A DNA stretch of 63,349 nucleotides, the filler included, from Moniliella sp. 'wahieum' (Eukaryota): the NCBI GenBank assembly GCA_003971905.1. It is 3 parts of 3 records of this genome, joined end to end, with 100 filler letters (N's around TTAATTAATTAA, not from the genome) between each part and the next. Parts side by side here need not be neighbours in the genome. Positions count along the whole stretch, not along the records: positions 22,237 to 49,110 come from RSEE01000186.1; 2 more parts are not named here. The stretch is one strand, 5' to 3'. The notes beneath the pieces are model-generated. The model did no database searches, had not been told where the DNA came from, and was given only the letters and a program-made list of their open reading frames with translations. How positions within the stretch are numbered: the stretch's first letter is position 1; the number at the start of each line of letters is the position of its first letter. The position numbers and the translations under genes are program-made. Shown here in pieces: positions 18,633-49,110 of this stretch.

Positions 18633-21395
18633 CTAGGTCGAAGAGGTGGGAGGCGCGTTCCTGTGGGGAAACAACGTATCGTTCCAGACCAGAACTTTTT
18701 CCATGGTATCGCCGTAGTCGTTCAGGGGCCCAAGTTTGTCCAGGTGATGATGGAAGCGGGTAAAGCGGGATTTGGTGCCATCTGTACCATACTCCATAGC
18801 CGCTATGATGGCTGTACAAAGCGAACTTCCAACAGAAGCGGCGGCAGAGAGAATGTAATTCATCCTGTTGACAACCAATCCAGAGATTTTGTTAGTGAAG
18901 AGAGTTAGCCACATTCATCCCTGGAACAATACAAAGGGAAGATAGAATAGTGGACGTACGCAATCCAATAATTCAACTGCCGACGACGGGAGAACAGTAG
19001 GTGAGTGAGAGCCCCCCAGAAAAACCAAGAGGTCCAGCTAATCGCTGCAAAAAGTGCGAATTGCGATATACCACCAAAGAAAAGCGGCCAATGGATCGAG
19101 CGGAGGTGAGCAACATGATTCAACTCCGGCGAAATCCGTACGGCAAGGTACAAGAGCAGGGGCGCGACTGCACCAATAAGGAAGAAGTACAGAGTCCATT
19201 GGTAGTGGTGCAGGAACCCGTTCTTCTGAGGCCCGACACCAGTCCAATACATGGGATCGTACAACCCTTCAATCCGCAGTTCGGCTTCTTTGCTGAATTT
19301 CAGCTTATCGGAACTCCACCCAATCCAGATTCCACTTTGCAATACCGAGCAGACCAATTGTGTTCCCACCAGTACAAAAAAGCTGATCCGTGGCGGGATC
19401 TTAAAGTAGACAGCCAGTTTGGAGCAGCCACAGTAGAGCATGGCTTGTTGGATGGTGCCCGTGCAGCATAGCTGAAAGATCGGAAGGATGGTCGTGTGAC
19501 CAGGCAGCGCAGCACCAGCAATCAAAGTCGCCATGTGCTCGACACACTTCAATTCAACCGAAGTGCGGCCCGCCACAATGCCCACTGGCACAATGAAGAT
19601 TGCAGCCAGCGCCAGGGCAAGCACAATCGCCCAAACCGGTACCGAGGTGTGGTACACGTGCACCATGGGGATGGCAAAGGCAAAGGCAACCAGAAGCAAA
19701 CACAGGTACCACCAGATGGGAACAGCCGGGTAGCCAGCGAGTTGGCTGGCGTGGGGGTCAGGCGAATCAGCCACTTTGGATACTTTCCACCAGCGGCGGA
19801 GGTCACCGCCATGGAAAAGCGGAGTGTGCACGAGCAAGGCGGTACATGCGGCATAGGAGAACGCCCAAGTGATGACGATTGAGGCGGAAAAGTATCCCTG
19901 TGGGTGGGTCGGGTGACTCAAATTGGGGAGGATCTAGATACATGTCTTGGGGCAAGGGGTTGAAATACATGTTGGTGGTGTTGAGCGGTGGGTACCAAAT
20001 CACGTCGATAAGGCCATAAGGAATGCAGGCTGCTAGGTTCTTGTTGGTGAAAAAGATCGGAACGGCAATGACCCACATGGCAACGACGAAGCCACAAAAT
20101 ACGTTGACCAGCGCGCCCCGCGGTACAATCAAGGGTGAACTCAAAGCTGCGATCACTAAATTCCAGTCCAGGCACCAAAAAGACCCGCTCATGCCACCCT
20201 TTCCATCAAACAATAGATTGACCCCAAAGCTGGACGGAGAAATCCACGTCGGCCACTCGAATCTTGCCAGAGGCGGATAGAGGAATAGCGGGATCCAGTG
20301 CCACACGAAAATGACCGTCGCCACAATCCAGAAAACGAGGCGACGGTTCCAGTTGCCACGCCGAACCCCGTGTAACGCCGTCAACATTGCACTGGTCTGA
20401 AGTTGCTGCGGGTATATGAGCTTACCAGGCCAAATGAGAAGACGTGTGGCAAGACCTGCCAAGGCAAATCCAAAGAATGGGGTCGAGAGGTAAATTAGAA
20501 AAAGGAAGCCGGGCGGGAATGTGTAAGGTCTTTCTGGGTCACCAGCATTTGTGGCTGCAAACATTCCAGCCAAGTATTGCAAGGTTAAGTTGGGGCCCAT
20601 GGCGACCGCAGCGACGATGGTGCAGATCCTGCGCGACACAATCACATGTGTCAGCCACAGAGCTCTCCTTTTTTAGAACTTCAACGTCTCGGAAGATGGA
20701 ACGCACGTATGTTCCTTGAGATTGAAAGGGCCCGGGTTGATGAACCAAGCCATGGGCCAGTGGGATGGGTACGGTATTTTCGATAGCGCGAAACCCAAAC
20801 AGTAGGTGAATGGCTGTACCAACACCGCACTTGTAGACACAAAGATCTGTGGGTCGGCATCGGTTCCTCTGGTTTCCAAAGCCACGAGGGCGGTCGTGAG
20901 GCCGAGGGCCAGGATAATGGAAAGCAGCCAGGTGCGGATCGTGTTGAATGGCATATCTGGGTCGTCTTCATTAGGCACGACGGCACGCACACGCACATCA
21001 GCCAAGTCCCGGACATTCTCTTCGTCTGTGTCGGTTTCATCTCCATTGTTCGCGCCTTCACCCCATTGGTCCGGTTCCCGTTTTTCGTTCGTCGCGGGTT
21101 GATTCCCAAAGGGTTCATCATGTGGACTCAGCAGCGGATCGTCGTGATAGAGCGCGTTTTCCAAGAGCCACGCTGTTTCCATCTCATTCTCGTTGTCGTT
21201 TTCGCCTGTGGTTGTGAACGATGGCGCGGTAGTCTTATTGTACGTCCCTTTGGTTGTTGACGTTATGCTTTCAGTTGTGAGAGACTCAAACGAGTCGATG
21301 GAATCCAGCTTTGACGGAAAGCCCGAGTCATTGGAAAGTGGGCGGGTCCGTTCCTCATCCACTTCAGTGGGCCCGCTCGAGCGAGGAGTCGACAT
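18633..21395 (-). CDS. OPT oligopeptide transporter, copy 2
   Basis: Duplicate of 4253-7034. Its indels differ from copy 1; for example it reads VFCGFVVAMW in frame. Confidence 0.88.
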
Positions 21396-22136
21396 GATGT
21401 CTAGCCTTTTCTTTTTCTTGTGGTGTTGGTGTTAGTGCTCGGTGTTATTGTTGTTGGTGGAGGGGGCCTGGGCTGGGCAGTGGGTGGGGGAAAGAGGGAG
21501 GAAGGCAAGTGCTGGACGGGTGTTTTATACCCCGTCCCCCAGTGCCCACCGGCCACTGGCCAACCACCAGGCCACGCAAGCGGGTGGGCAGCAGGCACCC
21601 ACTAATCAGCCCACGCCTGCACAGTGCCTGTACCCACAGCACTAGGGTTGTGGGCACGTCCACCCACCTTATGTAATTGTGCACCCACCCCGCGGAGATT
21701 AACTCTACGTGCGAGACAAAATTCTAGTTGGTTCAGTCGGTCCGCAATGGCAGCAAGTGTCCTACCGGTGGATCTTGCTTGACTGAGGCTCTCCTTCTGG
21801 TCTCGGCCTGCTCGCCCCATCCACCCCCACTTGCGCCACGGCCCCTGCTAACAGTGCCTCCCCACCTCCTTTCCAACCATACATCCCGCGTGTGTGTGTT
21901 TGCACGCAAGAAGCCCCCCAACGATCAGTGCCAGGCCGGCTTGCTATCCTCTGCCACAACGTCTCTTTCCCTCACTAGTCACTTGCTCTCCCACAACCAA
22001 AAACGCCTGCGTGCGTCCAGTGTGCCATTCATTGCATCCGCACCCTGAGCATCGGGGCGGGGATTCCATAGAATATGCCGGTAGCGTAGGACGAACAGCA
22101 CCTTTACTTTACTTCTTGGCCTCGGCCGCAGCCGCC

Positions 22137-24954: not shown

Positions 24955-25994
24955 ATGGTACGTCCACACGACTCCCTTCTCGCCGCTGCGCGCAGTCCTA
25001 ACCCCCCCCCCGCCCAGTCCCGCCCCTCTGCCAGCGCGCCTCATCTTGTCTGGGCCGGCGGCCACATCCTGACGCTCTTCTGCGGCGCCTGGGCGCTGAT
25101 CAGGACGCTTGTCTTGATGCGGGCCGCCAGGCTGGCGACCGCGTCCTACGTCATCGCTTACCTCGGCGCATTGGTCAGCTACGGGATTGTGGTCTACAAG
25201 TCCTTTGGCCGGCCGCAGTGTCCAAGGCCAGTCTGCACCGCATCCTTCTGGATGAGAAATGCAGTACTTGGTCCTGTCGTTTACTGGCTGTGGACCTACT
25301 CTACCCCCATCCCCATCACGCTGGTTCCCTTTGTCGTCTTTCCCTCTTCCATGTCCTCACCTTCTTCCGCACCACCCTTATCCCCTTGCCTTCCCCCCAT
25401 CGTCCCAGAGCGCCGCCGCCTCGGCCTATCCCAAAAGGGTGCAGACCCTGATCCAGAACTGGGTCAAGACCACCTACAACCCAGCAATGCGCTTTGTCGC
25501 CTACGCCGAAGTGGTCATCTTTGCCCGTCTCCTTTTGGGCGCAATCGCGTTGCGCAACTCGCTTTTGGCTCCGCTCCTGTTTGCCCACTTTATGCGCCTC
25601 CGTTTCGTCATGAGCTCCTTCACGCGTCACGCTTTTGGCCAGGTCCAAACCCAGCTCGACACGCTCAGTCGCAACCCGCGCTGGCCCGGACTCGGTCCGC
25701 AAGGGCTACCTCACTACCCGCGACCTCATTGCTCGGTACGCCAATTCGGTGCTGTCTTTCGATGCCGCGGTGCCTGCTACCCGGCCAAGACTTCGTCCTC
25801 TGCCGCTGCCCCGGCCCGGCCCCGGCTTCGGCCACTTCCACCACCGTACCTGCCGCTGCCCGGCCCCGACCACGCCGACCGCCGTTCCTTCCACTGCCTT
25901 CACGTCCAGCCCCCAAGCCACGACCAGCCTCGACGCTACGGCCGCGACGGCCGCAGCGGCGCATGCTACAACGGGGCCGGGAGCTACGTTTTAA
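24955..25994 (+). CDS. TMEM33/Pom33/Per33 family ER/nuclear-pore membrane protein
   Basis: ATG-only first exon, intron 24958-25017 (GTACGT..CCTAAC..CAG). Motifs VWAGGH, GALVSYGIVVYKSFG, LLDE-QYL, SLFHVLTFFRT, WVKTTYNPAMRFVAYAE, FMRLRFVMSSFTR. Confidence 0.85.
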
Positions 25995-26662
25995 GTGGAA
26001 TCGCTTCTGTCGCCGTGCAGGAGAAACTGCGTGTCGCGTGTCTGCCCTCCGCTCATGCTCTCGAAGCAAGCACAGCCTTCATTCACTGCCTACTTGCCCG
26101 TGGGGAAGGAAACGTGCTCGCGCTCGCGCTCGCACCTCAAATCTGGTGAATCCCTGTTCCTCTCCCTCTCTCCGTCCCTCCCCTCCCCCCGTTGTCGGAT
26201 ACAATGCGTTGATATACTTTGCTCTCTCTCGTTCCCATCCTACTATACTGATACGCTCGCGGGCATAGTGTGTGTGCTTTTCTTCTTTTTTTGTTTCCCG
26301 CCCTGGGTTCCTCCGCGTCGGGCGCCATTGTATTCTCGTTTGGATCAGGTGCATGGGGGCAGCTGGCAATCCCGATCCAGTTGTTGTTTCGTCTAGATAC
26401 AGTCGCAGGAAGCAGGTTCCTGCCGGTTCGCGCGGGGGGCGAGAGAGAAAACTGCTGTGCCCCACCCGCATTCATCGGGGGTATCAAAACCCTGCTACGT
26501 GGGCGTTGTGGACGGGCGGGATGAAATCGTGGTGGTGCAGGGACGAATACCGAAGAGGTAACAAAAGTGACGCGGAGAGGGCATAGGTTCTTCGGTTTCC
26601 ATCCAAGCGATGCCGAGAGGGAAAGGGCGACTGCGCATTTAAACTAGCCGCAACCAAAAAAG

Positions 26663-26757
26663 TGCTTCAAAGGGGAATCGAACCCCTGTCACATCGACAT
26701 CTCACAGGCACGGGGCCAGTCTGGCAACGATGTAGTATACCACTAACCCATTGAAGC
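26663..26757 (-). tRNA. tRNA-Gly(GCC) with 24-nt intron
   Basis: Minus strand reads GCTTCAA TG GGTT AGTGGT ATACT A CATCG TT GCC A[intron]T CGATG TGAC AGGGG TTCGATT CCCCT TTGAAGC A. Acceptor, anticodon and T stems pair; a T6 Pol III terminator follows. Confidence 0.95.
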
Positions 26758-27531
26758 TTACGATGATCCAATGAAATACAAGAAGTAGACAGGCGTGCCG
26801 ATGTGTGCATTCCAAAAGAATCTAACTTCCGACCTCGTTCGCCAACAAAGTACGCTATCTGGGATAGTTTCACCCACCTCCCATCTTCCATTCCCCCTTG
26901 TTTTCGTCCGCCCGCCATATCGTTTCTTTTCCGTGTTGGAGGGGGGGGGCTTGGGACTCTAGGACTTTGGTCCCGTTTGGTCACATGTTAGGCGCCATCG
27001 ACCATCAGAGTGTGGTCCTGTGTCTCTCACCTGTCGGTTCGGACCCGCTTCTTCAACCATCGGCCCGGGGGGGGTTATTTCATCGCACTGTAGGTCGTAT
27101 CTGTGGGATTCCCGTTAGGCCTTAGGCATGCCCGTACACCTTGCCGATCGACCCGCACGAGAGCGCACCCTAGCTGATACCCTGCAACAGCATGTGCAGC
27201 TCGCGGTGTCGAAGAGGTATATGGCAGGTCCGCCCTCCCTCATCACCTGACATTACCGCTTGCTCTCCATCAACCTCAACCAGGAAACGCCAGTGCTAAC
27301 CGTCCCCATGTAATGCTTTTTTCCGCGGTGACTGCATTAGCTACGTAGGTGCCTAGTATCATAGGCGGATATGGGGGGGATGGGGGGAAAGATAGGGGTA
27401 AACCCAACTCAACATTTTAGATTCAAGAGACGAGACTCCTTAACAAATCAGTGAGGCAAGACCAGTCAAGCCTCCTCGACCGATTAAAGAAACAAGACTC
27501 CTTAACGCAAAAAGGCAGCCATCCAACCCAC

Positions 27532-28192
27532 TTACTGCTGGGCAGCAGCGCGCTGGTGGAGCTTGAGGTTCTGGACGAGGGGGCCGTGGTTGTTGACAAA
27601 CTGGAGGTAGCAGCCGTCCTTGATGATACGGTTCTCGGCCATAGCCTGGGTGAACTGGGTGCGGTCGAGCTGGGTGAAGCCCCACTTCTTCGACACAATG
27701 ATCTTCTGGCGACCAGCAAACTTGTACCGGAGCGACGCAGAGCCTCGAGCACGGCAGCCTTGTTGCTGTCCTTGCAGCGGATCGAGATGAGCACCTGGCC
27801 AATGTCGACACGGGCCACCGTGTCGTAGGGCTTGCCCCAGGCACCACGCATACCCGTCTGCAGACGGTCAGCGCCAGCGCACGAGAGCATCTTGTTGATG
27901 CGGATCACGTGGAAGGGGTGCACGCGGATGCGCATGTGGAAAGCGTCCTTGCCGGCGTCTTGACCATGTACTTGTTGGCGCAAATGCGGGCCGCCTCAAG
28001 CGCCTCCGAGGTGATCTGCTGGTGCTCGTCGCACACCATGTGGGCGCAGAAGGGGAAGTCATCAACCGACGCACGCTTGCGGCCCAGGTCAAAGATGCGG
28101 ATCTTGGGCTCGGGCACACCACGGTTGTAGCGCGACTTGGGGTAGGGCTTGTTCTTGCAGTAGCGGTAGCAGCGCGCGGGACGACGACCCAT
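27532..28192 (-). CDS. RPL10: 60S ribosomal protein L10 (uL16), intronless
   Basis: [27 protein letters not shown]...[31 protein letters not shown]...[14 protein letters not shown]; two indel frameshifts. Confidence 0.97.
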
Positions 28193-28504
28193 CTTGATGA
28201 ACTTGGCGGTGGTGGGAAGACAGCCGAGCTAGCCGCAGGGGGAACAGCCACGAGGATGCGGCGGGTAGGCGCAACCCTACTGATGAATAAAATTAGAGCG
28301 GGCGATACACACGGGTCGTGCTAATTGCTGCGGCAATGCCATTCCGTACTAGGGTTATTCCCAATTCCACAGTCGATCACGTGCACGCCTACGCCGTTTG
28401 ATTCGCCACCGGATCTCAGAGACCGCCTTGTTCCCAACGGGCTGTGGAGGTGCTAGAGTGCGACTTGGGAGCACTCGCGATCCTATGGATCAGCTGCAAA
28501 GCAG

Positions 28505-28657
28505 CCTTCAGACAAGGCGTGAAGGCAAAGTGGTGAGCCAAAGTCTTCAAGCAACGTCTCATTGTGAGGAGCAACAGGTCAAGAAAGGAAGCAGAGGCGT
28601 ACCTTCAGACAAGGCGTGAAGGCAAAGTGGTGAGCCACAAGTCTTCAAGCAACGTCT
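28505..28657. repeat. Two ~55-bp direct repeats separated by 42 bp
   Basis: ccttcagacaaggcgtgaaggcaaagtggtgagcca(c)aagtcttcaagcaacgtct at 28505-28559 and 28602-28657. Confidence 0.9.
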
Positions 28658-29104
28658 GAAGAGGGAAGAAAGGAGAGAGAGAAGGGAGATGGAGCGAGCA
28701 GGGCGTGCGCGGCCTGCGAGCGGAACGCTTTCGCTCGGCTAGGCGAGCGTCACCGATCCATTGAGGGCCGCGCAGGAGAACCCTAGCAGTACCCTCTAAC
28801 AGGAGGGGCTGATGACCACGGACTATGGTAGGCATCTTTTAGTAATGACCGCTCATCGACCTCTAGCGAGCCATACAGACCACTGTGACAGCTGCGCTTG
28901 ATTGTATTTGGACGGTGGCCTACTTCAGCCGCGGCCACAGCGCTGTCAACGTCTACACTCGATGCCACTTTCGTGCTCTCGTTCTGGGTTCAGACGAACG
29001 TATTAAAGTCCACGGGTGCATATACACGGTCAAGAACAATACTGATGACTACTCTAGTGTAGCAGTAGTCGTACAATGCACCCCCAATGGCCGCAGCTTT
29101 GGCA

Positions 29105-30062
29105 CTATTCAGCCTCGGGCACGTTGATGGGTGGGGGCAAGGGCGCGCCATGCCGAGCGGCGACAAGGGCACCCACTTCTTCCGCAAACTTCTCCACGGC
29201 CTGGCCGGCTCCCGCATTCGGCAGGACCGTGCCGACGGCAGTAAAAAGGACCGGATCCTTGTTCACTAGGCCCATGCGAAGCCACGCATTCTCCCGCTCG
29301 ATTAGCGCATTGTCCGCCGTCAACTCTCGCAGACGCTGGCGTAACCACCGTGCATCCTCCTCGAGCGCCGTCTCGCGCGCTTTCTTCTTAATCCGGAACC
29401 GCGCTGCAATGCATACCCGTCAGAATTCGCCTCTCAGAAGATCTGCAAAGAGTACCCCATGTGAAACAACGTACCACTTGCTAACGTGTTCCTCCGTCGT
29501 TTCTCTTCCTCGTTAGCCGCATAGGATTCTGCTTCAATCCGCTCTTCCAGCCGTGGCGTCGGAGGTACTCCTGGGCCAGGCGCCGTGGGGAGGTTCCAGG
29601 CAGTGAATGCTCCATGGGGGAGCGGTGCAGGAGGCGGTGCACCCGGACGCAAGTTGACAATGATCGCACTCTTTTTGCGTCGCGCATCTTGCCAGACGTG
29701 AGCGGGTTGATAGGAACCAACGGTGTCTTACTCTTCTTCCTCTTATTGGCCGGCGGGGAGGAACGGGTGGATGCGGTGCTCGGTTGGCCAGGATCTGAGC
29801 TCCTTGGCTCCATGGCCACAGGCGATTCTTGCAGTAGGAGGGAAACCCACGGCGCCCATTCGGCCGTGGCCATCTCAACTGGTGGTGGCGGTGGCGGGTG
29901 AGCGGGAGGTGTTGGCTGAAAAAATGGTGCAGTGGCAGTAGTAGTGGCAGTGGCAGCAACGGGAGCAGGGGAGGCGATTAGCCGGCTGAGACGGGCAGTG
30001 CTATCGGCGCTCCGACTGCGCCGAGGAACGACGAAGGGGGTAGGCGGCGCGTGGGTGGACAT
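29105..30062 (-). CDS. bZIP transcription factor, MetR/CYS-3-like basic region
   Basis: Splicing intron 29474-29404 gives EEEKRRRNTLASARFRIKKKARETALEEDARWLRQRLRELTADNALIERENAWLR. Confidence 0.8.
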
Positions 30063-30594
30063 GGCAGTGGTGGTGGTTGCGGAAAGGACGAGGATGAGTT
30101 GATGATGGCGTTAAACCATGCGTGTGCCCAACATACGTCGACCTGTTGGCACTGCTGCGCCTCGGCTGGTTCAAAGGCTAACAATAACGACCTGTCGGGG
30201 CATGCACCTGGAAGCTTGACGAGTCTCTCTACCAGAGTATAGATGACGCGAGACGTTACACGTCCAAAGATATTCTTACGTCGATACAGCACAGAGTACA
30301 ATAAGATCGGTGTCTTTCATCCACACTCTGTTCCCGCCCCAGCCAAGCGAACCACAAGGCATCTCTGCCGGCTATCAATCGCAAACACTGCAACAGATGC
30401 AGACACCCAACGGCAGAGGGCAGATTGCGAGCCACGCGTCTCGATGGATACTACACTCGTGTTGGGGTCGTGTGGAGAGTGTGCTTGTGCTTGCGAGCAG
30501 CATGGACTGGACTGAGCACGTTGACGTTGAGCGTTGAGTATTGGGCGCTGAGCTGAGCGAGGAGCTGCTCCACGCCGTGCGGGGGGCGTCTCAC

Positions 30595-30630
30595 ATAAGA
30601 CCTAAGACCTAAGACCTTAGCCTAAGACCC
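30595..30630. repeat. (TAAGACC)n heptamer array
   Basis: ataagacctaagacctaagaccttagcctaagaccc; a related sequence is at 50715-50764. Confidence 0.7.
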
Positions 30631-31340
30631 AAGGGGGGAGTTAAGCACCCAAATGGCGTGCTCCGATCGACTTTGGTGCAGTAATATTTTCACAAGTACG
30701 TCGCAGTGCTTTACTCACGCTAGGGTTGCTGCGCTTGCTGTTTTGACGCATGGTGTGCTCCCGCCGACTGACGCCCAGCTGGCTACGCTGGATGCGTTGA
30801 AATGACGTTACCCGGATGGACCAATTGCTTCCCACCACCAGCGTCTGGAGCAAGCGCCTCGTTCCATTCCTCCATGGACCCATCTCCCACCTGAGGCTTG
30901 AAGGCCTGAGGCCTGACCGGCTGACCGGTGACCGCCGATCCTTTGTTGCTGGGGGGGCGCTCCCTTTATTCTACGAGGATTTGGAACATGTATCTGGCAG
31001 CCAGGCAGTGCTCACAGCACCAGCCATGGCCTGCCGTAGTGTTGTTCTACCAGCAGCTCTTGAGCTTGATGCCGGCGATCGATGTGACGTCGTGACGCCA
31101 CGTTGATCGAGATGCCCAACACGCCGACCATCACGCTCGCCAGCGCTCCCCCAGCCGTCGCGGTTGTGCAGCCACTCTCCACCCACACCAGCGGCCCTTG
31201 GCCTGCGGAGTGGCACGTGATGCGGGGTGCGCACGGCGGAATGGTCGAGCGGAAGGGGCGGGGCAGCACTGGAGCAGTGGGGTGGGGGCGCGTGCAGGAC
31301 AGTGTTGCGGCCAAGCTGGCTGCCAACTGCTAATTAGTAC

Positions 31341-31497
31341 ATGGCGGCTTCCGTCGACCGTCGCAGCTCGGCCGCCACCTCGCCTTGCCTGCCGACGGGT
31401 GTCCTCGGCCGCCAGCCTGCCCGCCACGATGCTGACGGCGTGCGAGAGCGCCGAGGCGAATCTGCTCGTGTACCACTACCTCAAGGAGAGTGGCTAG
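31341..31497 (+). pseudogene. LisH-motif fragment (Sif2/TBL1-like N-terminus)
   Basis: ESAEANLLVYHYLKESG* resembles the TBL1/Sif2 LisH start (SDEVNxLVYRYLQESGF). No downstream exon or WD40 region was recognisable. Confidence 0.45.
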
Positions 31498-32046
31498 CTC
31501 GTTGTTGCCATTTCTTTGTACAACTGTGGCTAGTACTACTTGTACTGATTTATTACCCTGACTGATGTGCCGCCGGCCGCCGGGGCACGGTGTGGGACGT
31601 CTGCTGCCCTCCCCTCCGCGCACTTGCGGCTTTTGGTTGTGTCTTAACTCAATCCGTAGGCCCGTCAGAAGGAGAGAGGAATAGAGTGCGAGGCGGGAGA
31701 AACCGCGTAGGAAGGTGGGTTGGAAAGCAGGGCCAGGCTTTGTTGAGGCCTCGAAGGTCGTATACATAACACGGGGCAGCAGGGAGGCATATACATGCCA
31801 ATCAGACGCCTCAGCCTACGTGCCGCACCACAGCGTTCCTGAATTGAAGGAGATGGATTCCAATCGCATGGGGTGGGGGGGGATCTTTCTATATCCGGGT
31901 TCGTGCATCCACACATTCATCAACAAGTCAGAGGAGAGGGGGAGGGCGAGGAGTGGAGAGGAACAGAGAGGGGCGGAGAGGGATTGCCTACCCCAGACAA
32001 AGAGGTAGGATATCCCATCGATCCGAATCAAAAAGGCGATCTGAGG

Positions 32047-34635
32047 CTAGTCTTGCAGTTCCACGCGAATCGAGTAGCGCCATGCAAAAAATTCTTCCCG
32101 CTCAAGGCGGGTGACCAGGCCGCGCGCCAGCGACGGGGCCAGGGAAGAGGTATCATTGAGGTCGAGGAAGCGGTCGTGGGAGATGGGGAAAATGCGGGAG
32201 CGGACGTAGCGGTAGCACTTGCCCACCTTGGCGTCCGAACTGAACCCAATCCGGCCCTCGGGGGAGAGGAGCTCGGCGACGCCCTCGCGGTTGGAGAGGT
32301 AGAGCTGCGGCATGCGGCCGCCAAGGCGCGGACCGTGGTGCACCGATGGCGTGAGCGCGGCCAACAGCGAGCGCAGGTGCGAGGCCATGTACACCGCCTG
32401 CGCCGCATTGATATAGCACGCTTCCGTTGTGTCCTGCGGCTCGTCCTTGAGGAAGGACCAGTACCAGTGGATTGGAGCCGAGCCGAGGTAGATCACCGCA
32501 CCTCCAACAAAGTGGTGGCTGCCGTCGGGCGGCACGACGGGCGCAGGCGCCACCGACGCATGCACCGTCAGCTGTCCTGGCACCGTCGTCGGCGGCATGC
32601 TGTCCGGCAGCAGACCCTCCACCCCACCCCGTACGCACCAAAGGTGAGCGAGGCATGGGCGGTACGTTTAACGTAGAAGAGCAGGCGCCAGAGCGCCGCA
32701 TAGTCCTCCCGCCCCAGGATCGGGTGCACGCGCGGCGACAGGCGCAGCAGCGTGTAAGCAATGTCGGGCCGGGTCGCATGCGCCAGCGCCTTGAGCTTGG
32801 TGTAGGTGTAGGTGTACCACTGCTGCTTTGTCAGCGACAGCGGCGGCTCGGCAATGAAGGTGTCCACGTCCGTGTCGTGGGTGCTCACTGGCGTCAGCGG
32901 CAGCGGGAGGCCCGGCACATCCACCCCTTCGACCCCGAGCCGTGTGAGCAGGCGTAAGATCTCACCCTGCTGGTTGAGGCGGATGTGATGTTCGTCGATG
33001 TGGACCTCGAGAGTGCCGAGGCGACGAAGGGGCCGACCGTTGCGGAGGTGAAGCAGGTCCTTAAGCAAGTCCTCGACCAGATGCACCTCGGCCGTCGAAC
33101 CAATGCACAGCAGCTCGTCCACATACGCGCCCATCACAACATGCAGGCTGGGATGGAAGTACATCCCCTCGTTGTTCTCGATCGGGTGGAAGCCCAGACC
33201 TTCCAACGCGCCTTGAAGCTTGCGAGACCAGCTGTTGCGCACCTCGTCCACCCGTACAATGCCCTGCGCAACTTGAACACGGGCTCGACCATGTCCATGG
33301 GGTGCACCGCCAGACCCGGGGGCTGGGACATGTAGATGTCCTCCTCCACCTCCTCATGGAGGAAGGGATTGAGGTAATCAAAGTGGTGCAGGACCAGGTC
33401 CAAGCTGTGCTTTGCGTACACGGCCAACACAGTGCGCAGTGACATGACGCCGGGCTGGCGAGTCGGAGCGAGCTGACGAGCGGAAAGGTGGACTTGCCGT
33501 ACCACCCCGCCTTCGCCTGGGCTGGCCTTGCAAACAAAGTGGGGCGTGAGCAGTTGTTTCTTTCCCCGCACCAGGGCCATCTCGGGCTTGGCCCAGTCGA
33601 CCAAATCCCAGGTATGAATCGCCTCCAGGTGATGCATCTCGGCCTTGAGGAGAGAAAGCCAGGTGTTGGCATTGGGGCCAGTGATCGCCTGCCGGATGGT
33701 CGGCCGGTTGGGGTCAGTGGTTGAATCCTTCTCCGCAGTGGCCAGCAGAGCGACACGCAGAGTGCGATGCTCGTCAATCGGGTCGAGAAGCGGGACGCTA
33801 GGCGGGGCGGGGTAATCGTGCGGGACACCGGGACGACAACAGGAGGCGGAGGGGGCACTTCCTTCACCGACACTGGTGGAGAGAGGGTGCGCACACCCTT
33901 GTCCTCCGCATCGACCGCCACGATAAAGTCGAGGAGGAGGGTGGTGAGCGCAGCCTCGGTACGCTTCCACCGCTCCAGCTCGGCCGCAGCCGAATCAATG
34001 TCCCAGTACTCGAGACGTTTGCGGTGCTTGACGATATCGACAAAGCGGGCCAGGTAGGCATCACAGAGCGAGGGGTAATAGGGCAAGAACTGGCGGTGAA
34101 GATGGAGGAACTTGTGGTCTTCCCCAGTCGAGTACCCGTACGTCTCGACCCATTCGAGAGTGGTGCGCAACCGAGCGCGGAACTCGGAAAAGGGTTCGTG
34201 GCTGCGGGTAGAAGCATGCAGTGTCAGTGCGGCTGGGCCTTGTGTAACATAAGGAGGAAAGGACATCACATACGGCGCGAGGTTGCACTTTTGTAGCGCA
34301 TTCAGCTCCTGGCACGCCTGCTGATCCAGCGGGCGGCCGATGCAGCCATCAAGCTCCTGGAGCATGGCATGCCCGGTGGAGAGGAGGTGGATGTTCGGCA
34401 CGCGTTCGATGATGGACTCGCCCAGAGCAAGAAGGACGGCTTTGTGGGCATATTGGCGCAGACGATTGCCCGTGTCGGGGGTAACGGACTCGATGATGCG
34501 GCCTTGGAGCTCGAGGGAGACAACGTCAGAGTGGACCGCCCAGTAGGCCAGGAAGCTGTCGCGCCATTGCCAGTAGCGGACGCTCTCGCGGAGGATGGGG
34601 GCGCTAAGGGCAAGCTCTTCGCTGAAGAGCAGCAT
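32047..34635 (-). CDS. Ty1/copia-derived Gag-RT-RNaseH gene lacking protease, integrase and LTRs (candidate domesticated gene)
   Basis: Gag-like N-terminus (APILRESVRYWQWRDSF). RT motifs PTIRQAI..W....AEMHHLEAIHTWDLV, HHFDYLNPFLHEEVEEDIYMSQPPG, KLRRALYG, AYVDELL, ATRPDIAY. RNaseH-like GAVIYLGSAPIHW..DTTEACY. About 3 single-base frameshifts and no internal stops in the stitched frame. Confidence 0.85.
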
Positions 34636-36494
34636 GGTGGGGGCGGGGGGGAGCGGAGTGAGGCGGAGGGGCGGGCGGGTTAAAAGGACGGGGGGGTGGA
34701 TGCGCAGATGTGCGACGAATGTCCACTGGGCGCAGAATGTTTTGCCGCTGGCGGGGGTGGCGTTGGTGGAGAAGGCCAGGGCCCAGCCCCTATCGTGAAT
34801 ATTGAATGTTTGGGCTGCCGGCGGTGGCGCAGGCTGTTCGGCGCGCTTTGGCCACGGCTACGTTCACATGTTCACACGTACGCACACGTACGTTCACCAT
34901 GTCCACCCCCTTCATGCGTGAGTACGGAGAGCTAGTGACTGGCCCTGGCCCCGTCTCACTCTGTCCAATCTGAATCTGCCCTGCCCGATATCTGCCGCAG
35001 GCGTCCTGGATCGCGTCCAAAAACAAAGAGCCTTGGGCTTATCGATGTCAGGTCTCATGCCAGCTCTCTGAATGAGGCAAGTAGCACCCAGAACTTGGCT
35101 GTCGCTTCGAGTCCGGATGTGGGAGCTGGCTGGCAGAGTGCTTAGCGCTTAGCGCTTTTGCATTGCGGCACACACGATGCTGAGTGCAGGCGGGGAAGCG
35201 GAGAGGCCCCGCTCGATAATAATTTGGCGTGTCGCTGATCATGAGTGTGCTGCTAGCGGCTACATGTGACAGAGCTGTGGAGTTCTTCTGTCCTACCACA
35301 CAGCCACAAATGACTAGTGACTCTCAAGGTGTGGGGGGCTGGGGAGAAGAACGCTGTGCCGAGGGGCGAGCAACGCGCAACGAGAGCAGCGTACGTACAG
35401 CCAGTTCAGCCTATAGACTAATCCCCTTCCGCAGGAGGGAAGATGTTCAAGTACTATCCAAGTTTTGCGCCAGGAGAGCGGCGTGGCTAAAAAGATCAGC
35501 CGGTGAAGCCGGTGACTCAGTACTGAAAAGATCCATGCTTTTTGTGCAATCTTTAAGCCCAAGGCGACTGGTACTGATTTGCATCGTCAGTACTGAGACT
35601 CAGTACTCAGGAGCAGTACTTGCATATACATGCACGACAGAATTCACATGTTAATAGTTGTCTTTTTTCTCTCGGAAGGAGGATGCCCCCCCGCACAAGG
35701 CAACTGCTGTTTCTCGCACGTCCAACTGAAGTGCTTCTCAGTTGGCGCTACCTGGCGGGGATGGAGAGCCACAAAAAGTATTTTAGTTAGGTACGTTAGG
35801 AGCCAGCTCTCTGTGTATTTCCGAATCGCATTGACACAGTGACGGGTGCCAGTCACTGACCGGCCGTCCCAGTGTTTTGGCCAGTGAACGACAACAGACA
35901 TGGGGAGCGCTGGAAGCGATCTGCGGGCTCTGCTTCCAAGAACATGGGTGGCGAAGCCGTGCATTCAGCAGATGTGGGTAGGGCTGCAATGTGTTTGGGT
36001 ACGCTTTTCTCGACACATGCCCACGGACACATCATGCATCAACCCGCCACCAAGTATTTTCCGGTTGCTGGGTAGATTTGTGCCACACTGCGTAGTGGCA
36101 CCGGTAGCTCAAGCTCGCTTCTCCCTTCGGTGCATTCAATATTCCTTCCGCAGGAATATTCTCTGGCTTCTCTGTAGCTCATGTGCCGTGCAATGCACGA
36201 TCAACTACCTGCTCTCTGGCCTCCTACAGATCCATTCGCAGTTCCAGCAACCCCCCCCCCCACCAAGGCGGAGAGAAAGACGGGGGGAGAGAGGGCATGG
36301 GTCGAGCGTGCAGCAGCTAGCCGAGTGAGAGAACTGCCGCAGTGCGCTGGGAAAAATCTTTTTGGCGGAATAAATCTGTGCGATCTCTTTTTCCTCAGTC
36401 TGCTTCGTTCGCGGAATACATCGAGACTGGGCTAGTGCTAGACCCCAATTGCAGCCAACTCCCCAATTCAATTTCCAACAATTCGCTCAGCTCG

Positions 36495-38360
36495 ATGTTC
36501 GGTTCTTACGACCCAGATTCCTTTTTGGCCTCCCACCACCCCGTCTCTCGCTTTGGTACGCATTTCCCATTTCGGCTTTTGAATGCCTGCCGAAACCAAC
36601 GTCTGACCAAAAATCACCCTCTAGAGGGATCGCATGGACCCAGCGAGTCTTTATCGCTATCTCCGCGGCGACGTACCTTCCGACGAGATGCCTGACTCCA
36701 CTCTCACTCCGTCCCAGTCCCAGCCCTCTCCCAGCCCGACAGTACCCGCAAACGCAGGCACAGGGACCACAAGGACAAGGACAAGGAGAATGGCCGCAAA
36801 AAGGAGCGTCGTGACAAGAAGAAGCGCAGGGACCACAAGGACAGCAAGAAAAAGGACGCCGCCGATACCAGCACCTACGCCGATGCAACCGAGGCTGAGG
36901 TCAGCATCGACCCTCGTGACAAGACCACTGACACTGTCTTTACCGCCAATGATGAGGAGCCCGCCCAACTTGCCGAGGAGAGCTTTGTCGATCCATCGCA
37001 GCAAGAGGTGGAGGCCAGTTTGGAAACCAATGCTTCCAAGGTTCAGGATCAGCCACCTGTCGAGCCTGAGGAATCGACTCAGAAGGATGCTCAGCCTGCA
37101 GCCCAGGAACCTGAGCCCGAGGTAGATGAGCTCCCTTCGCAGGTATCCTTGGCTGCAGGGGAGTCTGGCCCGGACGCGCTTCCCCAGAGTCAGAATTGTA
37201 AGGAGGCGAAGGAGCCGGAGGCCGCGCCTACACATGAAGAGGTTGCTCCTGCCACCGAAGACGCGTCCAAGGAGACAGGCGGGAATGCTGGTACCACCAC
37301 ACTCGCGCCGACGGTAAAAAAACGTGGACGCCCCAGCAACAAAGCTCCAGCTGCGCTCCCCACTACCACCCCAAGGAAGCGCGGGCGGCCGAGTAAGAAG
37401 GAGCTAGCTGAGCTCGCGGCGGCCGCGGCGGCTGCAGGTTCATCGAGCGATGAGGCTCCCCTGGCATCGGGGCCACGGCCGGTACGCAAGACGCGTAAAT
37501 CCGTACGCCAAGCCGACGCCCCGAGTGCCGACGTTCCTCCACCGTCGCTGCCGTCGCTCCCCCTTCCGCAGCCGGTACCTGCCCGCGTACCTGCCTCAGG
37601 AACGGTTAACTTTGTCGTGCTAGGTGGCCGACGTTTTCACGCTTGCTTACGGGTATGTGGCTCGCTGGTTTCGATTTCAAGCTTGTACTAACGCTGGAAC
37701 AGACATCCCCACGTTGCCTGCAACGGAGGCGCTTGTGCGGGACCGCTTGAAGCTGAAGAAGTCGGACCCACTGGTTTGGCATACGTGTACCGCGGCATGA
37801 TGATCGAGCTGCATGACCAGAATGACTTCACTGCTTTTGAGCACAAGATCAAAGCCTTGCCCCCCTGGGCACCAGAGGAGGTGGCGATTCACATTAAGCC
37901 GCCGAAATCGTACTCTTACCAACCCGTCTTCCCTCCCCCTCGATTTGGATGCCTGTCCCGCCCGGTATGGGTGCCTCCCAGACGCCACGGAAACGTGCGC
38001 TGGAGGCGGGTCCGGCCGTTACGCCATCGGTAGCGGGCGGTGCCGAGGTGCCGACGAACGTCGCTGTGGAAATGGGGACGGGTGAGACGCCCGAACAAAG
38101 CCGGGTGGAGAGCGAGGCGGGAGGCGCCGGCAAAGAAAGCGCGGAAGAGCACTGGCGGGGAGCGGGCGGCAATCAAGGCGCAAGAGTGCGGGGTGTGCCA
38201 CGCGACACCGTACCATCCGCTGTCGGAGTGCCCGCTGGCGGACAACACGGAGCTGCTGAAGACGCGCCTCGATGATCTCGTGGCGCAGGGCCGGCGCAAG
38301 AACGCGGCGGAGCGTCTGGCGCAGCGCGAGCTGTCGGAGCGTCTCGGGCGCAAGAAGTGA
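36495..38360 (+). CDS. Nuclear protein with two AT-hooks, a PB1-like domain, an ARKSTGG motif and a CCHC-type zinc knuckle
   Basis: Introns 36556-36624 and 37624-37702 have branch points. AT-hooks KKRGRPS and PRKRGRPSK; PB1-like LAYVYRGMMIELHDQNDFTAF; zinc knuckle CGVCHATPYHPLSEC (38187-38231). Confidence 0.7.
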
Positions 38361-39017
38361 AGAGGAAGGTGCGAGGGCGGGAGTGTGGTGCCCCGCCGGC
38401 TGGGTTGATATATAACACGTTGGGGGCCAAGCCACCGCCAACGCGATGATCGAGATGGTCGATGATGATGCATTTAACCATCTTCCGGGTGGAGGTAGGT
38501 GGCCTCGTCTTTGAGAGCTTGAGCATCTAGACTGCCCAAGAGCAACAATGGCGCGGGCCTGGAGAGGCGGGCATGCACATGGCTGCCCAAACCGGCAAGC
38601 GCCGAGCGAAAGACGAGAGGGCGAGGGGGGTAAGCATGTGGATGGCTCGAGAGCGTGCGGAAAGGACGGCACGAAGAGAGACGAGAGAAGAGGAAAGAGA
38701 AGGTGGTGGGTGGTGGGCCCCGTGGTGGTTATGGTCGGGTTGATTGTCTTCCGAGGGCGTATGGACGGCATCGAGGGGATGGCCAGGCGCCTAGTCTGAC
38801 TAGTCACTCTGGTCGGCCGCGTTGCGGAGCAAAGAGTGGCTCGGGCCACAGGCACGGCGGCGGTGTGTGGAGCGGCATGCTTGGCGCTGGGCGCTGGGCC
38901 ACTCCGCCCAGCCGCACAGCCCTGATGGCCATCACGCACCGCGCCATCAGGGGCGCTGGCTGGCCGTGTATATACGACGGATGCGCACGCATGCGCCGCC
39001 CCCGCCGCACCACCAGC

Positions 39018-40462
39018 ATGTCCGCGCTCGACCTGGGCGCCTACGGCCCCGTCTTCCACATCGCCCCCGGCATGCAGACGTACGCGTGGGGCATGCCCGG
39101 CGCCACGGCCCTCGTCGCCCACTATGCCTTTGACGGCACCGGCGCCGCCTGGCTGGCCCCCACGGCTACGACCCTGCCACGCCCTATGCCGAGGTGCGCT
39201 CCCTCTCACGCGCCCAGCTCGCATCCGCCGCCGCTGACCCCCACGCGCATGCCCAGCTCTGGATTGGCTCGCCCCTCGGGCCCGTGCTATATCAAGCCTC
39301 CCGGCGTCGCGCCGCCTGACAGTGCCCGCATCGAGCTCGGCGCCTACCTCCGCACCCATCCCGTGTTGCTGTCGCAAGGCGTGGTGGACAAGTACGGATT
39401 GCAGGGCAAGTCGCCCCTCCCTTTCCTCTTCAAGGTGCTTAGCGTCGGAAAGGCCTTGTCCGTCCAGGCGCACCCGGACAAGCAACTGGCCCAGCGCCTC
39501 CACACTTCGCACCCGACATTTATCGCGACGACAACCACAAGCCAGAGATGGTGGTAGCGTTGACTGCCTTTCACGGCTTCTGTGGCTTCCGCCCTCTGCG
39601 GGAGATTCATCAGTTTTTGCATGACGTTGCAGAGCTTCGTGGGCTGGTGGCCCGTGGGCTTGGCATGGAGGAGAATGCCTTGTTGCAATATGTGGGTCAT
39701 GCATTGGACGGTGACACTCCCGACGCAGAACACAAAGCCGTCCTCCGTCGCGTTTTTGAAGCGATCATGACCGCTCCCCCTGAAATGGTGAAGGATACAA
39801 TCGAGCTTCTGATAGCACGATACGAGGCAGGCACCCTCCATCCTGCCGAGACACCAAGCATTTCGAAGCAAGTTCTTGCCCTCCAATCCCAATTTCCGGA
39901 TGATGTGGGCATTCTGTGCACCTATCTGCTCAATTTGCTCCACCTGGTACCGGGCGAGGCGCTGTATTTGGGTGCCAACACACCGCTCGCCTACCTGTCG
40001 GGAGAGGTGGTGGAGTGCATGGCGGCGAGCGACAATGTGGTGCGGGCGGGGCTGACACCCAAGTTGCGAGACACGGCGACGTTGATGGAAATGCTGACGT
40101 ACGAGGATGCGCCAGGCGAGGAGATGCGGATGCATCGCGAGCCGTGGGAGGGAGGCGGGGGCAAAACGGTGCTGTATCGGCCTCCGATTGACGATTTCCG
40201 CGTGCTGCGTACGGTGTTGCCCAGCGTCGAGGGCACAGAGGAGACCCACCGCGCGATCCAGGGACCGTCCGTGTTGCTGGCGACGCGAGGACATGTGCAG
40301 ATCACATTTCCTCTCGGTGACGCAGAGGGCGGGCTGGAGATCGACGAGGGCGCAGCTGTGTTCGCGGCACCCGGCGTGCCGCTGACCATCATGGCTCGCA
40401 CGCATGGACGAGTCCAGCCAGGGGAGGAAGTAGAGGTGTTCCGTGCGTTTGTCGAAGCGTAG
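39018..40462 (+). CDS. PMI40: Mannose-6-phosphate isomerase, type I
   Basis: QTYAWG, PYAE|LWIG (intron 39194-39257), LPFLFKVLSVGKALSVQAHPDK, DDNHKPEM, QFPDDVG, ECMAASDNVVRAGLTPKLRD, YRPPIDDF. Confidence 0.92.
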
Positions 40463-40696
40463 GAGGTGGGGGTTGTGCTACAACTGCTGTGGAATCTATA
40501 TTTTTGCTAGCGATACTGGCCGAGTGGGGGTTATCGAGCTGGTCATGGCCGGTGCAGCAGGGGGACTGCGGCAAGTGGATGCATTGTTATACACACAGAG
40601 CCCCACAGGGCCTGCAAGAAAGGAGTTCAAGCGACCATTCGCCACCTCGCCGCAGAGACGAAAAGCGACTCATACAATGGAAACAGTCGCTGCGAG

Positions 40697-43600
40697 CTAG
40701 TGATACATCGTCTCTTCCTCCTTCGGCTCCAGGGCGCAGGAGCACGAGGCGTATCCTGCCCCTCCATCGGCAGGTCGGCAGAGGTATCGGCCCAATCCAT
40801 AGATGCCGCACAGGACTGTCCTGTGGGTGGGGTTGAGGCGAGGGCGGGGAGGGCGAGGGAGATTCGGCATAGGAGGTCACCGTGCGCCTGGACGTCAGGC
40901 GGGAGGAGTGCCGCGGGGCCAGGACTACGGACTGGTTGGATGGTAGTGGCGACGGGGGCAGCGGAGGAGAGGCCGCCTTGGGACGGACATATGCCCTTCG
41001 ACGGGCAGCACGCGTTGTTGCATTGTACCTGGCGCGCTGCGCCCTCTTCTTCCTCTTCCGCTCCTGGTCGGGCGGCTCAGGGATGCCGCCATTGCGCTGG
41101 CGAAGGGGCTCGGGGCGGTGTTTGATGCAATAGAACGCGTCCGAGTCCCAGTCGATTGGCGCCACGTCCTGCCGAATCAGATAGTTGGTCCAGCAGCGCA
41201 CATGGTGCAGAACGCCACACGCAGCGCACGCCTTCATCCGCCAACTAGGCGGCGGCAGGCGCCCCATCCGTCCGCACACATCACAGTCGAATAACCCCAT
41301 TTCCGCTGCGATCGATCGGGTGCTGGTGGAGGCAGGCACCGCAATCTTTTGGGTTGGCACCCGCCGCGCCTGACTTTGAGCACGTCCCTCACCTGCCTTC
41401 TGGGCCTGCTTCGCCCGCCATGCTCTCATGTAGAGGCGCCGAGCCTCGATCCGCTCCATCTCGCTCTTGATCTTGCGCAAAACAGCCGCCTTTGAGTCTG
41501 GCTCTCTGCTGGCCGCCTCCGCTTGACATTCGTCATCGTACGCTGCGCTTTCTCCTCGGGTCCCTGTGCCGTTTCTTCCTCGACCGTCGCGTCGCGCCGA
41601 ACCCGCTCTTCTTCTTGCGCTACGATGCGAGACGAGCGCTTCCTAGAGCCTAGCGCAACCTCCATCAGTTTCGCTTTTTCCTGGGTTGCCTGGATTTTTT
41701 CAGCCTTGGCCTGGGCATCGACAGCAGTGAAGATCTTGTCCAGCGGCCCGCTCGACAAAAAGGCAAACAGGTTTGCCTCGTCCGCGTCTTGTGTCATCCC
41801 CCCTCTTCGGTATTGGGCGGAGGCGGGTGGAGGGCAGAGAAGAAAGCTTCCCACTCAGCCCGGGTGGAACAAACCAGCTCCATTTCTACCTTGCCCTCCA
41901 GCGGCGCTTCGAGTGCGATCGCGTCCGATTCAAGCTGCTCGTCCCACCGCGCAAACTGCGCTTGCTTGTCCCCATCGGCTTGCACTTGAAGCACATCGTA
42001 AACCACTTGTTCCGTCTCATCCACTTCGCCCTCGGGCTGCTCCCCATGTGCTCTGGTGGGCGTTCCGGCGTCGTGGGTCGAGGGGGGTGTCTCTGCCTCA
42101 TCCCCCGAGGACGAATCCGTGCTCGTATCGTCGTCCCCGCTCTGAGGGAAAGCCTCCTGCAACAAGTGTTCCTGCTGAGGTGGTGGCTCACGGGGAGGGG
42201 TTTTGGGCCCAACGAGCTCGATTGTTCTTTGATCCGGACCCGACAATAGGAGAATGTCCTCGGTGGAAATGGAGCTCATGTCATCATCGGATGAAGAGGT
42301 GGATTCTGTGGCCCCATCTCCACCTCCGGTCCTACAGGTTCATCGAAAGCACCCGCCTCCTCCGTCTCCGCGGGAACCTGGGGCTCTTCAGACTGATCCG
42401 AATGGGAATACAGTACCCACAATCGCGTATCAATAAGGTAGTACGAGTTGCCGTCCCGGTCCCACCCTATTGGGTCGGACTGTTTGTGGAATGGGTCCTT
42501 CGTCGCCCATTACGCGAAGAATACAATCGGGCGCTAAGGATAACCATGACGTGACGTCATGGAGAACGCCGAGCTGGATGGAACGGGAGAGATGCAAACG
42601 TGCGTGGGTGCTCGTCGGATCCGAGCCAGGCCGCATGGGAGGGCATGCGGAGATCATACTCGGCGCGCAGGGTACTGAGCCAGGTCGAAGGGGAGACAGT
42701 GCCAGGGGTGAGAAGGCGCAATAGCACGCGAATTACCTCGGCTGTCTGCGTAGCCAACCCATGGACCAAATCCTGTTCCAGCTGCGCGGGCGAGAGAGGG
42801 GCAAGCCCAAGTGCAGGCTGGAAGGTGGCGAGAAAATGACAGACCGAGGCAAAGCGTGCGTCGCGGCGGAGACGTGCAATCGCTGGCTCAACAGCTTTGG
42901 ACGCACCCAAGGCAGCAGCGAGTGGATGAGAACCGGGCGGGCATGTGGGATGGAACAGACGCGAGGAGGCTGGGGGCGGAGGGGGTGGGGGCTCAGAGGC
43001 GACTTGCAGACGAGTGATGATGACTGCAGATCATGCTCGAGAAGCGGTTCGAGCAGATGGAAAACGTCGAGCTCGGTTGCCAACTGGATGGCATCCTGAA
43101 GTGGGATCCACGTGCCGTCGCGCCGGTGGCCCGTGAGTGCATTCTCGGCTGGGAATCGTGAGAGCACCTTCTTCTGCCTCAATGATCAATTCCAGAGATT
43201 TTGAGGATCCGGGTCGCGCTCACGTACCCATCTGCTTCCCGCCAAGCACGCAATGTTGCGTACCACTAGCTGGAATACGGGCTGGTTCCAGTGGGTCACC
43301 AGGTGGATGCCAGTAGGAGGAGGCGTGTTGGCGCTAGGAACATAGGATGTGCCAAAAATGGCAGGGTAGGATGTGCCAGCAGTAACACGATTGGGTGTCC
43401 CAGCAGCACGATCAGGTGTCCCAGTAGCAGCACGTTCGGGTGTCCCAGCAGCGGCACCACCAATATCAGGTAAGGGGGACGAGGTGGAAGGTGGAGCAAG
43501 GGGTAAGATGATAGATCAGCTTCCAGGAGTGGTTTGAGTAGGTGTGCAACATTGCATTGCACCGCCAGTTGGATGGCACGCTCAATGGGGATCCATGTGC

Positions 43601-48430: not shown

Positions 48431-49090
48431 AGGTGTGGGTGGGGTGGGTCGGGGTGGGTAGGGTTAGGGGTGGGTGTAACTTCTCAACGGGTGGTCCAAT
48501 CGAGAAACGGAGGCCATATGCTGCATAGAGCGGACGATTTTATAGCGAGCTATCGTCGAGGCCATCGGAGGGTGGGTGGGGGGGTGGTGGGTGGGTAGGG
48601 TTAGGGATGGGGGGGTGTAACTTTTGAACGGGTGGTCCAATGGAAAAACGGAGGCCATATGCTGCAACGACGGACGATTTCGTAGCGAGCTATCGTCGAG
48701 GCCATCGGAGGTGGGTGTTGTGGGTCGGGGTGGGTAGGGTTAGGGATGGGTGTAACTTCTCAACGGTGCGTCGGATGGCGAATCTGAGGCCATATGCTGC
48801 ATAGAGCGGACGATTTCGTAGCGAGCTATCGTCGAGGCCATCGGGGGGTGTGTCAGGCATGGTGGTGTGTCGGGGGGTGTCAGGCATGGTGGTGGGTGAG
48901 GGGGGGAGGGTTAGGGTGGGGTGGGTGAGGGGGGTAGGTTAGGGTGGGGTGGGTGTAACTTTTGAACGGGGCGTCGGATGGGAAAACGGAGGTCATATGC
49001 TGCATAGAGCGGACGATTTCGTAGCGAGCTATCGCCTCGGCATAACTCTCTCCCCTTCGGGTAGCTCGCTATCTACCCTCGGCCCTCCCC
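48431..49090 (+). repeat. Telomere-associated sequence (TAS): four ~135-200-bp units
   Basis: Units are anchored at gtaactt (48476, 48617, 48752, 48955). Each has a G-rich GGTTAGGG spacer and the core catatgctgca...cggacgattt..tagcgagctatcg. Confidence 0.9.
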
Positions 49091-49110
49091 TAGGGTTAGG
49101 GTTAGGGTTT
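49091..49110 (+). repeat. Telomere (TTAGGG)n, end of contig B
   Basis: tagggttagggttagggttt immediately before the linker. Confidence 0.92.

Follow-up and report, generated by a model that had tools for sequence, protein, structure and literature searches.

A candidate Ty1/copia-derived gene of Moniliella in which a Gag-like domain is joined to a catalytically altered reverse transcriptase-RNase H

We analysed a stretch of 63,349 nucleotides (nt) from the Moniliella sp. 'wahieum' assembly GCA_003971905.1 (hereafter the window), in which parts of three records are joined with 100-N spacers and need not adjoin in the genome, and focused on a candidate domesticated gene related to Ty1/copia retrotransposons within the part from RSEE01000186.1 (22,237-49,110). 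Located on the minus strand between an ATG at 34635-34633 and a TAG at 32049-32047, the gene encodes, in this order, a Gag-like domain, a Pro-rich linker, a divergent copia-type reverse transcriptase (RT) and an RNase H-like tail, over approximately 863 amino acids (aa) if unspliced and approximately 839 aa if a candidate intron is removed (Table 1). Comparison by tblastn with P0002, a relative whose frame is open over 898 aa, revealed four collinear pieces (frame -2, 34635-33886; frame -1, 33823-33251; frame -3, 33230-32637; frame -2, 32589-32077); the 820 codons across these pieces contain no stop other than the terminal one, as compared with 16, 24 and 23 stops when that stretch is read in the three plus-strand frames. 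An earlier reading made from the DNA alone, without database searches (the sequence-only reading), had described a stop-free open reading frame (ORF) of about 860 aa after repair of about three indels, preceded by a TTTTAA motif, a C-rich leader and CCACCATG, and all of these were recovered here; the TTTTAA may be a promoter element, and a putative one only.

The three frame changes are in the same direction, correspond to one missing base each and all lie in sequence rich in G/C runs. Comparable breaks were found in housekeeping genes of the window: RPL10 (uL16; 28192-27532, minus strand), which is intronless here, shows two one-base frame switches in 661 nt (at approximately 27950-27959 and 27725), the former leaving no gap relative to solved RPL10 chains, and the gene for phosphomannose isomerase (PMI; 38634-40459, plus strand) shows one switch near 39500, where the Pfam profile positions overlap. 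The RPL10 switches are best read as assembly errors, and the PMI frame split is likely another one-base error of this type. Furthermore, a 6.7-kb segment present twice in the window (1079-7782 and 15461-22136; 99.15% identical) differs between its copies by 25 indel events (18 single-base) and 5 substitutions, a pattern typical of uncorrected long-read consensus and not of evolution. With three breaks in 2589 nt, the rate in the candidate is below that of RPL10, consistent with the earlier claim that its indels resemble those of neighbouring housekeeping genes. Because the breaks are of the same error type as those in RPL10, PMI and the 6.7-kb duplicate, they provide no evidence of decay, and frame breaks in GCA_003971905.1 should not be taken as pseudogenisation. 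Reading the three breaks as introns was rejected, the gaps measuring 0-60 nt and carrying no splice signals. The duplicated 6.7-kb segment itself carries a TPT-family transporter gene and an oligopeptide transporter (OPT) gene, and represents either an artefact of assembly or a very recent duplication overlaid with consensus errors.

Pfam domain scans covered the window gene, five relative proteins and 29 ordinary copia polyproteins. RVT_2 was the sole family detected in the window gene and in four of the five relatives, none being detected in the fifth, the N-terminal piece P0001; no match to the protease-barrel, integrase (rve), gag_pre-integrs, SH3_retrovirus or zinc knuckle families was obtained in the window gene or the five relatives, while the same kind of scan identified gag, protease-barrel, integrase and SH3 domains in ordinary copia polyproteins. 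When 12 ordinary copia polyproteins were used as tblastn queries against the whole window, the matches of all 12 were confined to the RT stretch at 33868-32622, indicating that no protease or integrase remnants lie nearby. Likewise, no flanking direct repeat of at least 40 nt was found within 25000-42000, and a blastn search for long terminal repeats (LTRs) in the 7-kb flanks gave a best match of just 26 nt (E 0.044); the gene is present in one copy in the window by tblastn. The absence of LTRs, zinc knuckle, protease and integrase that had been read from the DNA is thus borne out. An autonomous copia element is excluded because four of its defining features, namely LTRs, the order Gag-protease-integrase-RT-RNase H, the RT motifs and the RNase H carboxylates, do not hold here. 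An ordinary degraded copia insertion was also rejected, as LTR, protease and integrase remnants are missing and the relatives have the same architecture.

The catalytic state of the protein was assessed by motif alignment of the family members with 11 ordinary copia sequences, in which the assignment of aligned motifs to catalytic residues follows established knowledge of RTs and RNases H. The RVT_2 match is weak across the family, the relatives scoring 31.5-58.1 bits as opposed to 174-279 bits in the 29 ordinary copia proteins (window values in Table 1). The fingers motif KARLVAKG..Q..G.DY.ETF.PV is shorter by about 8-11 residues in every family lineage and motif B (LYGLKQS) is replaced in all five, whereas the Asp of motif A is retained wherever this motif is covered, which is in four lineages; motif C reads YVDE in the window, P0003 and P0004, NVDE in P0005 and YVDD in P0002. 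In the RNase H-like tail, three of the four carboxylates are replaced in the window gene and all four relatives, the Glu of TEA alone being kept: across the family DAD is changed to HAS, DN to SN or SD, AD..TK to AR or TQ, and KHID to (G/S)(K/R)CY. The corresponding window motifs are VHASV (32551-32565), TEACY (32413-32427), LYLSN (32290-32304), SLARGLV in place of AD..TK, and GKCY (32197-32223). The alignment contains every RT and RNase H state listed in the sequence-only reading (HHFDY kept, YVDE, VHASV, TEACY, SN and AR), and it adds the fingers-motif deletion and the loss of motif B, so that decay is wider than described there and common to the whole family. An AlphaFold2 (AF2) model of P0003 reached a mean predicted local distance difference test score (pLDDT) of 82 and a predicted template modelling score of 0.79, with the RNase H-like part mostly above 90, and Foldseek aligned this model with Moloney murine leukaemia virus and HIV-1 RT over approximately 540 columns at a probability of 1.00. 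As modelled, the RT-RNase H fold is retained.

For the N-terminal domain, profile comparison by hhalign of the family N-domain with a 21-sequence copia Gag profile gave a probability of 70% (E 4e-5, score 36.3, 105 columns), relative to scores of 10.9 for the reversed profile and 14.7 for the best of 30 column shuffles, and the aligned stretch fits the usual copia Gag core pattern. The N-domain as a divergent copia Gag is moderately supported by these profiles. In the ESM Atlas, the best values for the N-domain were 0.92-0.94, and one cluster, 10% Retrotran_gag_2, stood at 0.91 with 128 shared features; we treat this as a lead only.

Alignment with P0001 also revealed that the Gag-like domain of the window gene contains an insertion of 24 residues (72 nt) with the signals of a spliceosomal intron, the branch-site A lying 22 nt before the 3' end; this feature was absent from the sequence-only description. 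An intron of the same build occurs in the OPT gene (20622-20699, minus strand, 78 nt; GTGCGT ... GCTGACAC ... CAG, branch CTGAC), where it was located by Pfam profile coordinates. In P0002, the called ORF opens 21 residues ahead of the position of the window insertion and leaves out the 120 Gag residues upstream, as would be expected of a prokaryote-style caller if this position held an intron that contains a stop or shifts the frame. We infer from these alignments that the intron position is old and shared by two deep lineages.

Relatives of the gene are few. A word-seeded search with the Gag part returned two proteins, and an exhaustive HMMER search with P0002 against 1.84 billion representatives returned 2104 matches at E<=0.001, only six of which had E<=1e-30: P0002 itself, P0003, P0004, P0005, P0001 and the ordinary copia fragment P0006. 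The five family proteins correspond to four lineages besides the window, with the same layout and long open frames; P0001 (N half) and P0005 (C half), each on a 3735-nt contig, we infer to be one gene. P0006 (31% identity) is an integrase-RT-RNase H fragment that has an integrase tail, keeps YVDD and is intact in its RNase H motifs, and the remaining matches are ordinary copia polyproteins at approximately 24-33% identity. In a 90% clustering of 5.8 billion sequences the family forms four clusters of 1, 1, 2 and 5 members, each member sequence being found on 1-2 contigs of 3.7-13.6 kb. Of 4791 candidates among longer proteins (918-2620 aa) searched for this Gag, none reached E<=0.001, weakly suggesting that no polyprotein carries the family Gag, and scans of JGI metagenomes with two family alignments gave 208 and 251 pattern matches, 0 of which were confirmed by tblastn. 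An index of scanned DNA stretches likewise contained no look-alike, whether compared by sequence or by position.

Relative to P0003/P0151, the window protein shows 75-80% identity in three of the four aligned pieces and 65% in the fourth, which reaches beyond frame break 2 and into the variable linker; its identity to the other lineages is 44-65%. Each relative consists of the C-terminal part of Gag, the Pro-rich linker, which differs in length and sequence between relatives, the RT and the RNase H-like tail, with no extra Pfam domain. Identity among lineages amounts to 58-78% in the Gag C-terminal part, 50-77% in the RT plus connection and 44-78% in the RNase H-like part, the invariant columns numbering 30 of 64, 131 of 382 and 42 of 174, respectively; judged from these alignments, all three parts are conserved about equally, the apparently dead nuclease included. 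A tree built with FastTree from 90 RT-RNase H rows, 7 of them from the family, placed the family in one clade within copia RTs (support 100), with 1.8 changes per site along the stem and at most 0.6 on internal branches; P0006 is sister to this clade, a join flagged as possible long-branch attraction. Such a tree is consistent with a single founding event in which change was rapid and after which constraint set in.

The gene is flanked by RPL10, 4 kb downstream, and by an AT-hook-rich ORF (36696-37691) and PMI upstream. Its G+C content at third codon positions is 0.75-0.82, relative to 0.64-0.85 in nine stretches of seven genes, a comparison set that consists of host genes only. The ORF at 36696-37691 (plus strand) is rich in Lys, Arg and Asp, contains two AT-hook-like KRGRPS motifs and is without a Pfam match; it is probably part of a gene for a nuclear protein. 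Elsewhere in the window, a short repeat family forms tandem-like copies at 48435-49034 (73-84% identical among themselves), and one segment of it (48864-49109) matches a copy at the window end (63097-63343) at 92% identity. At E<=0.001, Pfam gave no match for the longest open frame of the window (11272-15414, plus strand; 1380 aa).

Table 1. Features of the candidate gene and its upstream region, in order of transcription (positions along the window).
Feature	Position	Strand	Evidence or remark
TTTTAA motif	34682..34687	-	47 nt before the ATG; a C-rich leader and CCACCATG come next; sequence read directly
Exon 1, N-terminal half of the Gag-like domain	34274..34635	-	Aligns with P0001 from residue 1; AF2 all-helical, low confidence
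Candidate spliceosomal intron, 72 nt	34202..34273	-	GTATGT ... CTGAC ... CAG; gap relative to P0001
Exon 2, first part, conserved C-terminal half of the Gag-like domain (EDHKFLHLHRQF, KHRKRL)	33886..34201	-	Lineage conservation; hhalign family positions 59-166
Pro-rich linker and frame break 1 (-2 to -1, one base missing, C runs)	33824..33885	-	tblastn frames
RT, N-terminal half, frame -1, motif A HHFDY 33374-33388	33251..33823	-	RVT_2 E 9.3e-8, 32.4 bits (cut-off 31.6)
Fingers-motif deletion, about 8-11 residues	33464-33499	-	Alignment with ordinary copia
Frame break 2 (-1 to -3)	33245..33253	-	GGG run; G common to the last codon and the next frame's first codon
RT, C-terminal half, and connection, frame -3, YVDE 33114-33125, EDYAALWRLLFY 32673-32708	32628..33245	-	RVT_2 E 2.8e-5, 24.3 bits; 80% identity to P0151
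Frame break 3 (-3 to -2)	32596..32627	-	Within GGGG/GGGG/GGG runs
RNase H-like domain, frame -2	32050..32595	-	Alignment with ordinary copia; 79% identity to P0151
Stop codon TAG	32047..32049	-	Sequence

Taken together, these data favour, at somewhat better than an even chance, a low-copy Ty1/copia-derived host gene in which Gag is fused to a pseudo-RT-RNase H that would act non-enzymatically, perhaps by poisoning copia particles; the gene would have been inherited vertically under purifying selection. The proposal of a domesticated copia gene in the sequence-only reading gains from the lack of an LTR or other copia pieces, the putative host-type intron, the tiny and apparently low-copy family and the lost RNase H residues, while the roles proposed there are hypothetical. 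Under the host-gene reading, protease and integrase would have been lost from a Ty1/copia ancestor, which would have joined Gag to the RT-RNase H through a disordered Pro-rich linker. As the fold appears to be kept and catalytic residues are lost, the protein most likely acts through binding rather than copying. Gag is what targets Gag-Pol into particles; the Gag domain could accordingly co-assemble with resident copia Gag and take the dead RT-RNase H into particles. Such a dominant-negative restriction factor acting via Gag co-assembly is a possible mechanism that we put forward tentatively, and it is favoured because of this targeting role of Gag and the fungal precedents Ty1 p22/p18 and DRT2. 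A shade more doubtful is a 'Trojan-horse' factor, that is, a host gene mimicking Gag-Pol whose product would be packaged in copia virus-like particles, where the dead RT-RNase H might displace or pair with the active enzyme and block reverse transcription; such a capsid-targeted poison subunit would have evolved through the deletion of protease and integrase.

A number of observations weigh against the host-gene reading. The Gag families in Pfam, Retrotran_gag_2 included, gave no match to the window piece at E<=0.1 or to P0001 and P0002 at E<=0.01, so that, among the profiles suggested for a search, RVT_2 matched weakly and Retrotran_gag_2 did not match; the AF2 model of P0001 (Gag plus linker) is all-helical in Gag but poor (pLDDT 44), and the 92-row alignment behind the P0003 model consists mostly of ordinary copia sequences, which favours a canonical fold. 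The 72-nt insert is in frame and stop-free, and could therefore be a plain 24-residue insertion; the intron position shared with P0002 was read from an ORF call and not from DNA, and introns can persist in the genomic RNA of retroelements. Given the YVDD of P0002 and the kept Asp of motif A, some polymerase activity may also be left. Finally, the relatives come solely from read assemblies, on short contigs such as also result from breaks at repeats, and no relative was found in annotated or named fungal proteomes, which could reflect a very narrow family or routine transposon masking.

The evidence for domestication counts equally for a gene with a cellular role apart from transposon control, such as an RNA- or RNA/DNA-binding scaffold or Arc-like capsids that handle RNA. 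The RT-like and RNase H-like domains of Prp8 are a precedent for a nucleic-acid scaffold, and in the present family the RT-RNase H-like part is approximately as conserved as Gag and has strong family motifs (EDYAALWRLLFY, HWYWSF and CYRYVRS), which argues for a function of its own and not for passive cargo. Pfam, however, finds no zinc knuckle, and the narrow distribution over four lineages is better fitted by a lineage-specific arms-race gene; we regard a cellular role of this type as unlikely, though it is the main alternative. Slightly less probable again is a non-autonomous copia derivative without protease and integrase, either spread in trans or recently immobilised with eroded LTRs. The copia-type RT, the nearest ordinary relative being the copia fragment P0006, the short contigs of the relatives and the lack of an annotated ortholog in named proteomes all agree with such a derivative, but no LTR or terminal repeat was found, the gene has one copy in 63 kb and just four clusters in 5.8 billion sequences, and the long stem and short internal branches are unlike those of a proliferating family. 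Moreover, elements mobilised in trans need not keep 839 codons open, whereas here the frames are held at 44-78% identity, an apparently dead RNase H included, with a putative host-type intron in two deep lineages. Least probable is a decaying pseudogene in this genome, with real breaks and intact copies in relatives only. The three frame changes in the given sequence would agree with decay; every break, however, is a one-base loss in a G/C run, the error type of the assembly, as seen in RPL10 (2 per 661 nt), PMI (1) and the 6.7-kb copies (25 indels to 5 substitutions), and a strain-specific pseudogene is unsupported on this account. The absence of internal stops in 820 codons, relative to 16-24 in the plus-strand frames, and the identity to the intact P0003/P0151 (75-80% in three of the four pieces, 65% in the fourth) likewise speak against it.

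The domesticated retrotransposon genes described to date have for the most part been Gag-only or derived from protease or integrase, and the majority trace to animal Ty3/gypsy elements. No description of a gene that combines a copia-derived Gag with a pseudo-RT-RNase H was found in open-access papers and bioRxiv preprints. If the host-gene reading is true, a conserved Gag joined to a complete decayed RT-RNase H would be a new co-option architecture, would represent a rare pseudo-reverse-transcriptase kept for a non-enzymatic role, and would provide a testable model of how hosts turn the assembly pathway of a transposon against the transposon.

Among known systems, autonomous Ty1/copia elements (P0008, P0020 and P0119) likewise have an RVT_2-type RT with a copia-type RNase H fold after it, and their Gag is related to that of the candidate at profile level; unlike the candidate, they have LTRs, protease, integrase, usually a zinc knuckle, an intact YVDD and the DEDD carboxylates. 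The mammalian SIRH/RTL genes are described as domesticated LTR-retrotransposon genes (PMC3406341). These genes, for example PEG10, keep Gag and sometimes a Pol-like region, and have a single copy and an acquired host gene structure; they derive from Ty3/gypsy (Metaviridae) and not from copia. Their Pol remnant is mainly protease, and a complete pseudo-RT-RNase H is not known from any SIRH/RTL gene. In trypanosomatids, an RT/RNase H gene derived from VIPER lies at a fixed locus, with synteny shown and no other element remnants around it, as reported in PMC5146736. Like the candidate, it is a host gene that keeps a retroelement RT-RNase H, but as described it derives from a tyrosine-recombinase retroelement and not from copia, has no Gag fusion and belongs to a different kingdom.

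Closer in origin are the co-opted fungal gag genes Crtg12-14, two of them copia-derived and one derived from Bel-Pao (PMC8321522). Crtg12 and Crtg13 are described there as single-copy ascomycete genes that come from copia gag and are conserved across families; they belong to Dothideomycetes, are presented as gag genes with no pol-derived part named in that description, and are compared with the candidate by description only, no sequence link to them having emerged, as the search results for the candidate family contained no named protein. For DRT2 of Saccharomyces cerevisiae and for Ty1 p22, interference with the particles of related elements by binding Gag has been shown (PMC10951436, PMC8458377); restriction by the candidate, unlike theirs, is a proposal from sequence. 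DRT2 and the self-encoded Ty1 p22/p18 are, like the candidate, proteins derived from a Ty1/copia-superfamily Gag and kept in a fungal genome, but as characterised in these sources DRT2 and p22 consist of the capsid C-terminal domain only, whereas the candidate, whose family has diverged to about 45-55% identity, would combine a whole Gag-like domain with a full-length decayed RT-RNase H and a putative intron.

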